64,000 nucleotides of DNA from Dictyostelium discoideum. Taxonomy: Eukaryota. The stretch covers positions 3,296,001 through 3,360,000 of the forward strand of contig CM000153.2 of assembly GCA_000004695.1 (NCBI GenBank), written 5' to 3'. Shown here one piece after another: positions 6,460 through 11,876 of this stretch. The notes under the pieces were generated by a model. It searched no databases, was not told the DNA's origin, and saw only the letters and a program-made list of their open reading frames with translations. Position numbers and translations under genes: made by a program. Within the stretch, counting starts at the first letter, position 1; the number at the start of each line of letters is the position of its first letter.

Positions 6460-8636
6460 TTATTTGATTATTTGTTTTGTTTTGTTTTTCATTTTTGAGA
6501 AAAGATCAATTTCAACAGCTTCACTTTTGTAATGACTACTCTGTTTGAGTTTAATTTGATTTTGGATGATATAGCCTACATTTGGTAAAGTAAGTAGTTT
6601 ATCAAATGTAGCGAATATTTCTTTTTGAGTCTTAACAGATGCTTTATTATTTTGGACATTATGTTTTATTTCTTCAACACTTGCTTTATATTCACTTAAG
6701 TGTTCATTGAGTTTTTGAATTAATTCTTGCGAGTTTTCAGAATTTTCCAATTGCTTTATTTGCATGTTGATATAATCTTCATAGTAACGATTAAATTTAA
6801 TTAATGAATGGTGCCACAAGAATACTGAAAAGTCAACAATTGCAGTCTTAATAGTATCATATTCTTCTTGGAATTGTATTTTTCTTTCTCCCATTTTTGT
6901 AACTAACAACTCCCTCTCATTAAATATTTCACTCTTTGTTCTTTGACCTATTGTTTTTTTATCAGTGCCTGGTAATTGATTGAGTTGAGGTGTTTCTTTG
7001 ATAGTAACTACTTGATGATCAAACCATAAACAAGGAAGTACTCCAGTGTTTGAACATTTTTTGCAAGTTCCCATCTTATTAATATTATCACACCAATAAA
7101 GTGAAGAATACCATTTTGGAGAAACAACATCAATGTTACAAGGATTATCGGTATTACTAGAGCATCCATTCTTTGTGCAAACCAATAGACTGTTTTCCAA
7201 TTTTTCCGCTATCACCACAGATACTGGAATGTATAATAATGATTCATCACCAATACTATTGTTCCTCAACTTTTCAGATTGTTGCTCCATTAATTTAATG
7301 TTGGTATTAATATTTGAAATACATGTTGACATTGGTTGAGCTAAATTGGAAATCATTGTTCTTGCATTATTTATACAAATTGTATTTGCAACATCATGTG
7401 GTTGAACTTTTGATATCTCTTCTAATAATCTTTTAAATTCTTTTGATGATCTATCCCAACTTCTACCAAAATCAAACTCATCATCTTCTGAAAAATTAGT
7501 TTCAATACCAGCAGTAGCATTATATTTTTTAACGGCTAAATAATTAAAAGATTCATTATCAAAACAAAATGTTTTTTCATTAGCATTTATTTCAATATCT
7601 GATTGATCTTTCATTTTTTTTAAATGATCCTCTAGGATGGCTCTTGTTGGACCTGGTTTATACATTGTACCTCTTGTATGAGTGAAACAAAAGAAAATAT
7701 TATCTTTTGCACTTGAATGTAAATGTAGTAATAATTGATTCAAACAATATTTGAATAAAACAGTGGCTCTAGTTTCATCTGGACGCATTAAAATACAAAT
7801 TGCATTTAACTTTTTTAATGATGAAATTTCGTGTAGGATATTCTCAAAATGTTTATTATCTTGCAATGTACCTTGTGGATCACCGACACCTGGAGCATCA
7901 ATTAAACAAAGTGTTTTACCATCTGGTAATTTAATTCTATATTGTCTTGAATACTGTGTAACTGAAGAGCCAATTTTGTAATCTTCAACATCTCCAAGTG
8001 AAAATTTATGAGTTTTATTTTCATCTTGAATTTCAATTTTTGAGGCAATTGTATAGATTTGTTCTAATGTTGCGTTTTCAAGTGCATCTTTTAAATTTGA
8101 ATACTCGATATAATTAACCACCATATTAACAAACGTTGATTTACCAACACCAGTTATACCAATTAAAAGTAGATAGATTGTATCCTTGTCATCATCAATC
8201 AAACCATTAACTTTATTAATAAGTAATGATGAATTTCCAATTGTTTTACCTCTATTTGATGAACAAGAATCTGGTGCTTTGGTTAATGGAAGTATTGAAT
8301 TTTTTAATATAGATAAATTTTCTTGAAATCCATTTGCTAATAAATTATATTCAAACTCATCATCTTTTTAAAATAATTTTAAATATATTAGTTTTTTTAT
8401 TTTTATTTTTATTTTATTTTAATTTTTTTTTTTATTTATTTTTTTTTTTTTTTTTTAAATTTTGTCTTACATTGTATAAAATTTTGGATCTCCCCAAAAT
8501 CTATATATCTTTCTTCTTGAGTTAATTTATTTTTAATGGTCACTCTGTTCTTAACATCATCTTTTGAAATTTCAAAAAACCTTCCGTTTGACTCCAAATG
8601 ATGTCTTAAAACAATGATTGCATAATCCAAATCCAT
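6460..8636 (-). CDS. P-loop GTPase, AIG1/GIMAP/septin-like (paralog A). Two exons join(8636..8471,8363..6460), about 634 aa, with a C-terminal Cys-rich module and a coiled coil.
   Basis: G1 motif LLLIGITGVGKST and G3 motif LIDAPGVGD. After switch II comes ICILMRPDETRATVLFKY...FFCFTHTRG, which resembles the AIG1-type hinge pattern. The small ORF 8436..8636 (MDLDYAIIVLRHHLES...) is homologous to the N-terminus of paralog B. It joins in phase (phase 1, T+AT=Tyr) through a GTAAGA donor at 8470 and a TTTTAAAAG acceptor at 8364. The Cys-rich block is CTKNGCSS...WYSSLYWC...GTCKKC...PCLWFDH. The C-terminus is heptad-rich. Confidence 0.65.
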
Positions 8637-9671: not shown

Positions 9672-11876
9672 TTAATTTCTTAAATCAACGATAATGGCTT
9701 CACTTTTCAAAAGATTATTTTGTTTAAGTTTAATTTGATTTTTAATGATATAACCTACCATTGGTAACTCGAGTAATTTATCAAAAGTCTTAAATATTTC
9801 TTTTTGAGATTTAACATTAGTTTTATGATTTTTGGCATTCTTTTGTTGTTCTACACTTTGTTTATATTCACCCAAATGTTCATTTAATTTTTCAATTAAA
9901 TCTGCAGAATTTGGAACACTCTCTAATGCCTTGATTTGGATGTTGATATATTTTTCATAGTAATGATTAATGTTTACCAAAGAATGATGATATAAGAATA
10001 CTAAGAAATCAACATTTGCATTCTTAATTATTAGATATTCATCTTCAAATTGTTTAATTCTTAATCTCATTTGTGATATTAAAATACTACTTTCTTTTTT
10101 TAATTCTTCTTTAGTCCTAATAATACCAACACCACCACCACCACCACCACCACCACCACCACCACCACCACAATTACTATTACTACCACATCCAAAATCA
10201 CTATTAATACCACTAATTGAATTATTTAAAGAAGAACTTTGTGAAAAAATTTTCTTTAGAGTTGGTATTTCTTCAACACAGATAAGTGAATGATCGAACC
10301 AAAAACATGGGATGGCACCAGGATTGTTACATTCTTTACATGATCCTAAGGTTTTGAAACTTTCGAGCCAATAAACTGAAGAATTCCATTCTTTTTGTGG
10401 TTCAAATTCTCTACATAGACTATTCGTACCACCTTTTGTGCAACCAATCTTTGTACAAATTAATTTATACTTTGGTAGTTTTTTAGATTCTACTGTGGTT
10501 TCTGGAATGTATAAAAAGGATTCATCACCAATTTTAATATTTCTTAATTTTTTAGATTGCTCTTCCATTAATTTAATGTTGGTATTTATATTTGAAATAC
10601 ATGTTGACATTGGTTGAGCTAAATTGGAAATCATTGTTCTAGCATTGTTTATACAAATTGTATTTGCAACATCATGTGGTTGAACTTTTGATATCTCTTC
10701 TAATAATCTTTTATATTCTCCTGATGATCTATCCCAACTTCCACAATAAACATTCTCATCTTCTCCTGAGAAATTAGATTCAATACCAGTAGTAGCACTA
10801 TATATTTTAACGGCTAAATAATTAAAAGACTCATTATCGAAAAAAAAAATTTTTTCGTTAGCATTTATTTCAATACCTGATTGATCTTTCATATTTTTAA
10901 AATGATTCTCAAGAATGGCTCTTGTTGGACCTGGTTTATACATTGAAGCTCTTGAACGAGTGAAACAAAAGAAAATATTATCTTTTGCACTTGAATGTAA
11001 ATGTAATAATAATTGATTCAAACAATAGTTGAATGAAATAGTGGCTCTAGTTTCATCTGGACGCATTAAAATACAAATTGCATTTAACTTTTTTATAGAT
11101 GAAATTTCGTGTAGGATATTTTCAAAATGTTTATTATCTTGCAATGCACCTTGTGGGTCACCAACACCTGGTGAATCAATTAAACAAAGGATTGTACCAT
11201 CTGGTAATTTAATTCTATATTGTCTTGATGTTTGAGTTATAGATGAACCAACTTTATAATCATCAATATCTCCAAGTTTAACTTTATAATTTTTATCAGA
11301 TCCTTGAATTTCAACATTTGTATCAATTGTATAAATTTGTTTTAATGATGTTGATTTTTGAATTGCATCTTTTAAACTTGAAAATTTTATATAATTAACC
11401 ACCATATTAATAAACGTTGATTTACCAACACCAGTCTCACCAATTAATAGTACATACTTTGTTTCTTTTTCATCATCTATTAATTGATCAATTTTATTTA
11501 ATAAATATGATTGTTCTGAATTTGGTAATGATGATGATGATGATGATGATGATGATGATGATGATGATGATGATGATGATGATGATGATGATGATGATGA
11601 TGATGATGATGATGATGATGATGATGATGATGATGATGATGATGATGATGATGATGATGATGGTGATGATGCTCCATCTATTATTAATTGTTCTGGTTTT
11701 TGTTGTCCGTTTGGATCCAAATTATTAATTTCATCAAAATTAACAAATTTCTCTTCAAGTGTTAATTTATTTTTTAGACAAACTCTTTTATTTTCATTAT
11801 CTTCTGTAACTTCATATAATCTATCATTCAATTCCAAATGTTTTTTGATTATTGATATTTTATTATTTATGTTCAT
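9672..11876 (-). CDS. P-loop GTPase, AIG1/GIMAP/septin-like (paralog B), intronless, 734 aa, with 48xSer and 13xGly homopolymers
   Basis: G1 LLIGETGVGKSTFINMV and G3 LIDSPGVGDPQG. The Cys-rich block CTKIGCTKGG...VYWLESF...GSCKECNNPGAIPCFWFDH is the same as in paralog A. The C-terminus is coiled-coil. The (TCA)n run at about 11528-11676 encodes the poly-Ser. Confidence 0.7.
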   Translation of the reverse strand: MNINNKISIIKKHLELNDRLYEVTEDNENKRVCLKNKLTLEEKFVNFDEINNLDPNGQQKPEQLIIDGASSPSSSSSSSSSSSSSSSSSSSSSSSSSSSSSSSSSSSSSSSSSSSSLPNSEQSYLLNKIDQLIDDEKETKYVLLIGETGVGKSTFINMVVNYIKFSSLKDAIQKSTSLKQIYTIDTNVEIQGSDKNYKVKLGDIDDYKVGSSITQTSRQYRIKLPDGTILCLIDSPGVGDPQGALQDNKHFENILHEISSIKKLNAICILMRPDETRATISFNYCLNQLLLHLHSSAKDNIFFCFTRSRASMYKPGPTRAILENHFKNMKDQSGIEINANEKIFFFDNESFNYLAVKIYSATTGIESNFSGEDENVYCGSWDRSSGEYKRLLEEISKVQPHDVANTICINNARTMISNLAQPMSTCISNINTNIKLMEEQSKKLRNIKIGDESFLYIPETTVESKKLPKYKLICTKIGCTKGGTNSLCREFEPQKEWNSSVYWLESFKTLGSCKECNNPGAIPCFWFDHSLICVEEIPTLKKIFSQSSSLNNSISGINSDFGCGSNSNCGGGGGGGGGGGGGVGIIRTKEELKKESSILISQMRLRIKQFEDEYLIIKNANVDFLVFLYHHSLVNINHYYEKYINIQIKALESVPNSADLIEKLNEHLGEYKQSVEQQKNAKNHKTNVKSQKEIFKTFDKLLELPMVGYIIKNQIKLKQNNLLKSEAIIVDLRN
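11528..11676 (-). repeat. Coding (TCA)~48 trinucleotide repeat encoding poly-Ser within GTPase paralog B
   Basis: The + strand reads (GAT)n. The antisense poly-Met ORF 11417..11728 is a by-product of this repeat. Confidence 0.85.

Follow-up and report, generated by a model that had tools for sequence, protein, structure and literature searches.

It is well known that genes duplicated in tandem may exchange sequence. Interlocus conversion and partial concerted evolution of tandem duplicates are textbook phenomena, exemplified by the human fetal globin genes HBG1/HBG2, by RHD/RHCE and by the opsin genes, and homogenisation restricted to a single domain is known from multigene defence families, for instance from the NBS versus LRR parts of plant NLR clusters. 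Here we consider a locus of Dictyostelium discoideum AX4 (contig CM000153.2 of assembly GCA_000004695.1, positions 3,296,001–3,360,000; this whole stretch of 64,000 nucleotides, with a G+C content of 22%, is further called the window). Two paralogous genes with a G domain, designated A and B, lie in it in tandem, 3.28 kb apart, both on the minus strand and in direct orientation. The central patch of ~660 bp in these old duplicates (7950–7288 in A, equivalent to 11228–10566 in B) has very probably been homogenised repeatedly by non-reciprocal interlocus (ectopic) gene conversion. Silent divergence along the genes is mosaic, phylogenies of their segments are incongruent, two breakpoints are seen in B and the exchange in the middle segment of the patch has a definite polarity; what we infer is how the repair proceeded and why the tract ends where it does.

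Both copies of the patch align without insertions or deletions at a constant offset of +3278 nt. In gene A the homogenised tract, delimited by the permutation test, dS and perfect runs described below, occupies 7288..7950 (minus strand, amino acids 194–414); in gene B, where the offset and diagnostic sites define it as an A-type segment flanked by B-type sequence, it lies at 10566..11228 of the same strand. Within it 613 of 663 nucleotides coincide (50 differ, 7.5%) and in the flanks identity is 50–80%. Every perfect run of at least 25 nt is located inside 7950–7288, the longest ones being 66, 56, 53 and 48 nt. Three parts, all on the minus strand, are convenient to distinguish: block 1 (7640..7950 in A, 10918–11228 in B), which extends from switch II to a G4-like motif, is 93.9% identical between A and B and is homogenised in every lineage examined; the middle segment (7471..7639 in A, 10749–10917 in B), defined by its own tree and difference counts; and block 2 (7288..7470 in A, 10566–10748 in B), with 9 differences per 183 nt and ~95% identity. 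The sequence-only reading of this region, which had described two paralogous GTPase genes sharing two nearly identical blocks, proved correct in respect of the genes, since G-domain genes are confirmed in tandem on the minus strand. Its blocks are indeed highly similar (176/186, or 94.6%, for 7285–7470 against 10563–10748, and 246/261, or 94.3%, for 7690–7950 against 10968–11228), but with perfect runs not exceeding 66 nt they are not near-perfect, and the coordinates 10955–11215 given for the B partner of the second pair were 13 nt out of register with the right ones, 10968–11228. Nor do both blocks cover the region from switch II to G4, as was supposed: this is true for block 1 (7899–7879 to 7686–7669), but block 2, according to motif coordinates and the helices of the AF2 model, falls into the helices following the G domain (amino acids 354–415).

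Synonymous divergence (dS) between A and B changes abruptly along the alignment. From 1.65 in exon 1 and 0.34 at 8200–7960 it falls to 0.16 at 7959–7640, 0.28 at 7639–7471 and 0.12 at 7470–7285, and then reaches 1.29 at 7284–6900 and 0.74 at 6899–6500. The N- and C-terminal flanks are therefore far more divergent than the blocks even at silent sites (1.65, 1.29 and 0.74 versus 0.12–0.16), exactly as had been noticed from the letters alone. Uniform synonymous divergence, which had been named beforehand as the pattern incompatible with conversion, was not observed: synonymous differences amount to 21/134 in the tract and 99/177 in the flanks (Fisher p=1.5e-13), and among codons specifying the same amino acid in both genes 14/183 and 61/156, respectively, are spelled differently (p=1.8e-12).

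The comparison with orthologous loci, proposed in the same reading, was carried out on six syntenic loci from related lineages, which provided 15 further copies. The first protein search returned tandem homologs in other Dictyostelium genomes and no B-type proteins of AX4, W and Z, probably owing to the pre-selection of candidates; the B copies were recovered by tblastn. Hereafter W, Y and Z denote the lineages ACTFIW, ACTFIY and ACTFIZ, while cit, dim and fir denote D. citrinum, D. dimigraforme and D. firmibasis. In trees built for separate segments all B copies form one clade with 82–100% bootstrap in exon 1, at 8200–7950 and in both C-terminal segments (S1, S2, S6 and S7), with 99% for 8200–7950 (S2) and 100% for the 3′ part of B. 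Since B copies are united in the flanks, the duplication predates these species. In block 1 the all-B clade is absent: copies A, B and C of the discoideum complex are set apart from those of citrinum, dimigraforme and firmibasis at 98%, and grouping by lineage appears instead (78% for Z_A/Z_B/Z_C and 69% for cit_A/cit_B). The alignment itself shows variants, mostly silent and confined to one lineage, that the paralogs of this lineage have in common. Counts of quartet sites supporting grouping by species versus orthology give the same picture. For AX4 against D. citrinum they are 14:1 in block 1, 8:2 in the middle segment and 4:2 in block 2, with 0:19, 2:84 and 2:47 in the flanks, and in block 1 they are 15:3 for AX4 against dimigraforme and 3:0 for AX4 against ACTFIZ. 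Thus A/B orthology in the flanks is combined with grouping by species in the core, a combination classically expected of concerted evolution.

A GENECONV-like test, in which columns were permuted 1000 times over polymorphic sites only, so that conservation was controlled, identified the segment 7950..7287 of A as the top AX4_A/AX4_B fragment (48/404 mismatches within 302/1075 polymorphic sites), and its score was reached in 0/1000 permutations. Third codon positions alone yielded practically the same top fragment, 7948..7288, likewise with 0/1000. Comparable fragments, at ~7950..7650, were registered by this test for the pairs Z_A/Z_B, Z_B/Z_C and cit_A/cit_B.

The direction of exchange was deduced from 155 diagnostic sites, which separate A-type from B-type copies across species. 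In the numbering of A, AX4_B is B-type at positions ≥7951, A-type at 9 of the 10 sites between 7923 and 7287 and again B-type at positions ≤7218, and W_B behaves in the same way; between 7923 and 7616 there are no diagnostic sites. This B/A/B order means that an A-type patch with two breakpoints was received by B. The middle segment is the most telling. In its tree (7639–7471) Y_B, Z_B, cit_B, dim_B and fir_2 constitute one B-type clade (97%), and AX4_B together with W_B (90%) falls among A-type copies, with 22/169 differences of AX4_B from AX4_A versus 54–60/169 from Y_B and Z_B. Transfer of A-type sequence into the middle segment of B is thus attributable only to the common ancestor of AX4 and ACTFIW after its split from ACTFIY/ACTFIZ. 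The adjacent segment 8200–7951, with its dS of 0.34 and A/B orthology at 99%, suggests either that an event of greater age took place there or that conversion becomes gradually less frequent along the gene.

The same segment bears on whether blocks 1 and 2 were converted independently, leaving unconverted sequence between them, which we consider possible but rather unlikely. Identity does fall there, to 88.1% over 7471–7689, so that the divergent stretch between the blocks claimed in the sequence-only reading exists at the level of overall identity; its silent divergence, though, is not clearly above that of the blocks and is far below that of the flanks. The silent dip is weak (7/30 differences versus 10/102 in the blocks, p=0.065, or 7/30 versus 14/104 with slightly different bounds, p=0.25), and the drop is mostly nonsynonymous (15/138 versus 18/393 in the blocks, p=0.013). 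Two separate tracts do correspond to the picture in ACTFIZ and D. citrinum, where significant fragments end at ~7650, a second one begins at ~7460 and the middle is truly unconverted. In AX4, by contrast, the middle of B is A-type, AX4_B and W_B stay outside the B-type clade, and the top fragment embraces the whole of 7950..7287, so that for AX4 a single tract of ~660 bp describes the data better than two.

The two switch points are also essential for judging unequal crossing-over or a later partial re-duplication, either of which would produce chimeric genes rather than conversion patches. Unequal exchange does occur here, because copy number varies: a third copy, C, is present in W, Y and Z, is truncated in two of these lineages and is not found in AX4. 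A single event of this kind would, however, leave one switch point and change the number of copies, whereas AX4_B and W_B have two, both of their flanks are orthologous to other B genes and gene A remains intact alongside; as the source of the patch such exchange is improbable. Still less credit, practically none, can be given to an assembly artefact, in which reads of the two paralogs were mixed in the reference. Perfect runs of 66 nt may indeed mislead short-read assembly, but a second D. discoideum assembly contains identical coding sequences, and the independent assembly of ACTFIW has the same mosaic and shares 17 A/B differences within the tract with AX4.

Stronger purifying selection on the core, directed at the protein and perhaps also at codon usage or an embedded nucleotide element, would explain the similarity without any transfer of DNA. 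It agrees with the consensus and invariant columns of the family alignment, by which no other part of the protein is as strongly conserved among eukaryotes as block 1, and with nonsynonymous divergence (dN) between A and B, which is lowest in this block. Close orthologs nevertheless reveal no silent-site constraint: for AX4_A and W_A the tract has 21/133 synonymous differences, the flanks have 25/179 (p=0.75), and dS is 0.10–0.24 along the whole gene, so that constraint of this kind is not the cause. Selection on the core likewise does not account for lineage-specific, mostly silent variants common to paralogs, for the contrast between 14:1 in block 1 and 2:84 in the flank, or for tree topology that changes from segment to segment. 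A structured RNA embedded in the genes was rejected as the source of nucleotide conservation, since a scan of 6000–12500 against Rfam found no family at threshold. On these grounds an origin of the mosaic in selection alone is very improbable, and the preference of the sequence-only reading for gene conversion over uniform purifying selection is upheld by the mosaic dS, the change of topology and the B/A/B structure.

Some observations nevertheless weigh against conversion as a complete and recent explanation. The dS values are Nei-Gojobori (NG86) counts, with small numbers per segment and without maximum-likelihood codon models. For the more distant pair AX4_A/cit_A the share of synonymous differences is somewhat smaller in the tract (42/127) than in the flanks (81/178, p=0.03), which is in line with purifying selection, and a modest part of the effect may be due to constraint at silent sites or to a noisy alignment of the flanks. 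G+C content at third codon positions is not raised in the tract (0.12–0.17 in six copies from AX4, W and citrinum versus 0.06–0.26 in other segments, with 0.12–0.14 in A and B of AX4), and no footprint of GC-biased conversion is therefore visible. Finally, of the tract sites in the AX4/ACTFIW quartet 17 are in favour of orthology and 3 of grouping by species, and no AX4-specific homogenisation is seen. Because of this ratio the last homogenisation predates the split of AX4 and ACTFIW, and continuing conversion is not demonstrated for AX4. In the tract, A and B of AX4 have diverged (50/663) to an extent comparable with AX4 and ACTFIW orthologs, for which the figures are 27/663 (A) and 58/663 (B). 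The second D. discoideum assembly, in which both coding regions are identical to those of AX4, is uninformative on ongoing conversion by within-species polymorphism. Conversion can thus be called recent, as had been proposed, only relative to the age of the duplication, since the last event is older than the AX4/ACTFIW split (3:17).

Taken together, the data support the following course of conversion. A and B had been duplicated before D. discoideum, D. citrinum and D. dimigraforme diverged. Later a broken or gapped copy may have been repaired by synthesis-dependent strand annealing on the neighbouring paralog, leaving a non-crossover patch. The latest event that can be traced in the AX4 lineage very probably copied A-type sequence into B after the split of ACTFIY/ACTFIZ and before that of ACTFIW, and block 1 was in all probability homogenised independently in ACTFIZ, ACTFIY and D. 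citrinum, with older events in D. firmibasis and D. dimigraforme. The tract presumably ends where the flanks are too divergent to offer long perfect matches. Lacking such matches outside the core, homogenisation would limit itself to the part conserved in the protein, and the N-terminal and Cys-rich/C-terminal parts would keep diverging; in the core, where the protein family varies least, it would be tolerated and self-reinforcing.

Homogenisation of the core, from switch II through the helices behind the G domain, recurs in no fewer than five Dictyostelium lineages, and its 5′ boundary hardly shifts between them (~7950). Conversion might then be more than a passive by-product. One may suppose that the tandem paralogs cooperate, for instance as hetero-dimers through their G domains in the manner of Toc34, GIMAP or septins, and that selection keeps the interface and the engine matched while the N-terminal and Cys-rich parts diversify. 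Since distant relatives are fused to a stonustoxin-type MACPF domain, which is pore-forming, the locus could then be an immune-like GTPase cluster of amoebae, arranged like NLRs with an engine that is conserved and sensors that vary. We regard this as a doubtful, largely speculative addition to gene conversion.

After conversion the two copies followed different ways. In sub-segments of the tract the paired values of dN and dS are 0.07/0.09, 0.14/0.18 and 0.09/0.04 for AX4_B/W_B, and 0.02/0.18, 0.01/0.24 and 0/0.12 for AX4_A/W_A. Judged by these values, the B protein evolves much faster than A inside the tract, which indicates relaxed or positive selection on B. A further feature was noted in ACTFIY, where Y_B (L004 7893–9556) is truncated from the 5′ end and opens at a point corresponding to A 7972. 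Over the initial ~330 nt it hardly differs from Y_A and Y_C and has private variants in common with them, so this stretch most probably represents a separate, younger conversion in the ACTFIY lineage.

Gene A consists of two exons, both on the minus strand. Exon 1 (8471..8636) was deduced from the frame and splice sites; it is followed by an intron at 8364–8470 of the same strand, with a GTAAGA donor, an AG acceptor and phase 1, and by exon 2 with the stop codon (6460..8363), which is an open reading frame (ORF) with a match to Pfam MMR_HSR1. The spliced model encodes 689 amino acids and coincides at 100% identity with the D. discoideum AX4 protein DDB_G0285485. Gene B, which also matches MMR_HSR1, is contained in one ORF of 734 amino acids from the ORF list (9672..11876, minus strand), and in the second D. 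discoideum assembly a 734-aa gene is called at this position; no exact match to the B protein was found in the protein collection. B contains, on the minus strand, a poly-Ser run encoded by (TCA)n at 11528–11680 and a poly-Gly run encoded by (GGT)n at 10118–10168, both read from the sequence and both absent from A. The N-terminal linkers of A and B are not alignable, and in A the equivalent linker region contains the intron.

MMR_HSR1 is matched by the two genes with 27.9 and 28.5 bits at a cut-off of 21.9. For the Pfam family AIG1 (PF04548) gene B scores 17.8 bits, below the cut-off of 27, and gene A gives no match. The G1 P-loop of A, GITGVGKST (amino acids 124–132, minus strand 8134..8160, by motif reading), with G127, K130 and S131 nearly invariant in the family alignment, lies outside the converted tract, in the segment that keeps A/B orthology. 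The tract itself begins at the strand before switch II, covers the rest of the G domain and ends in the long helices behind it. It includes the G3/switch II motif DAPGVGD (amino acids 211–217, 7899–7879), with D211, P213 and G214 invariant in the family, and the G4 position, where FTHTRG in A (7686–7669) and FTRSRA in B are found versus the canonical (N/T)KxD; T283 and R286 are nearly invariant. The AF2 model of A (mean pLDDT 77.5) places the G domain at approximately amino acids 115–345, followed by long helices H348–374 and H386–423, a Cys-rich beta region (433–520) and a helical C-terminus. Foldseek against PDB put Toc34 on top (1h65 and 3bb1, E 2e-6, target TM-score 0.57–0.60), with GIMAP2/GIMAP1 in addition, and a profile search of PDB gave matches to septins, IRGs, Toc34 and GIMAP. 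According to sequence and AF2 fold, A and B are predicted to be AIG1/Toc34/GIMAP-like (septin-related TRAFAC) GTPases. With the members of this group they share the P-loop GxxGxGKST, DxPG, the MMR_HSR1 match above cut-off and the Toc34/GIMAP-like fold; they differ in the sub-threshold AIG1 score and in a sizeable C-terminal extension, composed of helices, the Cys-rich beta region and coiled helices, that has no counterpart in PDB.

Distant homologs combining the GTPase with the C-terminal module occur in fungi (Mortierellales, Glomeromycota), echinoderms, rotifers and beetles. In many of them the GTPase is fused behind a stonustoxin-type MACPF/CDC domain (MACPF_SNTX, PF24674) and DUF7656, an N-terminal part absent from the Dictyostelium genes. 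In the literature no paper naming DDB_G0285485 was found, and among publications on gene conversion or concerted evolution in Dictyostelium nothing was found on this GTPase family. Block 1 of both genes also contains paralogous antisense ORFs on the plus strand (7751..7981, 76 aa, and 11029..11235, 68 aa). They were dismissed as a source of constraint, being probably by-products of conserved sense sequence in an AT-rich genome.

The order Trm112 – B – A – long gene is preserved in D. citrinum and at the loci of the discoideum complex, three of which have the extra copy C, and D. firmibasis has two copies at the same syntenic place. Gene content is B and A in D. citrinum, two copies in D. firmibasis, A, B and a fragment in D. 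dimigraforme, and B, A and C in W, Y and Z. The order in D. dimigraforme is reversed, Trm112 being followed by a short homologous fragment, an A-like and a B-like gene (L005 9064–9441, 10001–12454 and 14428–16536). Copy C, closest to A, is found in ACTFIW, ACTFIY and ACTFIZ (L006 9622–11673, L004 12780–14216 and L003 12923–15150); those of ACTFIW and ACTFIY are truncated, lacking exon 1 and having an internal deletion. AX4 has none, and at the corresponding site ~2 kb is replaced by 139 bp (6174–6313 of the window). As read from these loci, the pattern points to turnover of copy number, including probable loss of C in AX4.

Divergence of W, Y and Z from AX4 is 3–18% across the whole locus, and the ACTFIW locus with its flanking genes is 87–97% identical to AX4. 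A hypervariable locus, or one under balancing selection, was rejected, because dS of ~0.15 between AX4 and W equals the background divergence of the lineages throughout the locus, flanking genes included. On one side of the cluster, just downstream of the Trm112-like ORF (12405–12689), there is a perfect (ACTC)n microsatellite of ~90 nt (12696–12784). On the other side, the plus-strand ORF 4368–6185 opens with ~40 Tyr codons (a TAT repeat), continues as multi-pass membrane-like sequence and is the 3′ part of the long neighbour gene (1530–1631 aa) that flanks the GTPase cluster in all species; in D. citrinum this gene has a Beta_helix match.

Different histories of core and flanks make whole-gene trees or dN/dS misleading at this locus, and the core alone would date the A/B duplication far too young. 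Taken as a whole, the locus is a clean multi-species case in which concerted evolution is restricted to one domain, in an amoebozoan genome very rich in AT, with polarity from A into B and copy-number turnover, and it could calibrate the length and frequency of conversion tracts in Dictyostelium. Its resemblance to textbook conversion between tandem duplicates is close: old direct repeats a few kb apart, an internal patch of low dS, two breakpoints, orthology in the flanks and clustering by species in the patch. The differences are the AT-rich amoebozoan host, independent homogenisation of the same core in at least five lineages and the lack of a GC-bias footprint. As in plant NLR clusters, the nucleotide-binding “engine” of A and B is kept alike and the N-terminal linker, the Cys-rich beta region and the C-terminal helices diverge strongly; unlike there, the Cys-rich part shows ortholog dN/dS of 0.14–0.4, below 1 and with no sign of diversifying selection, and a defence role of A and B is only hypothetical. 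The locus is, therefore, a new and well-supported instance of a known process and involves no new mechanism.

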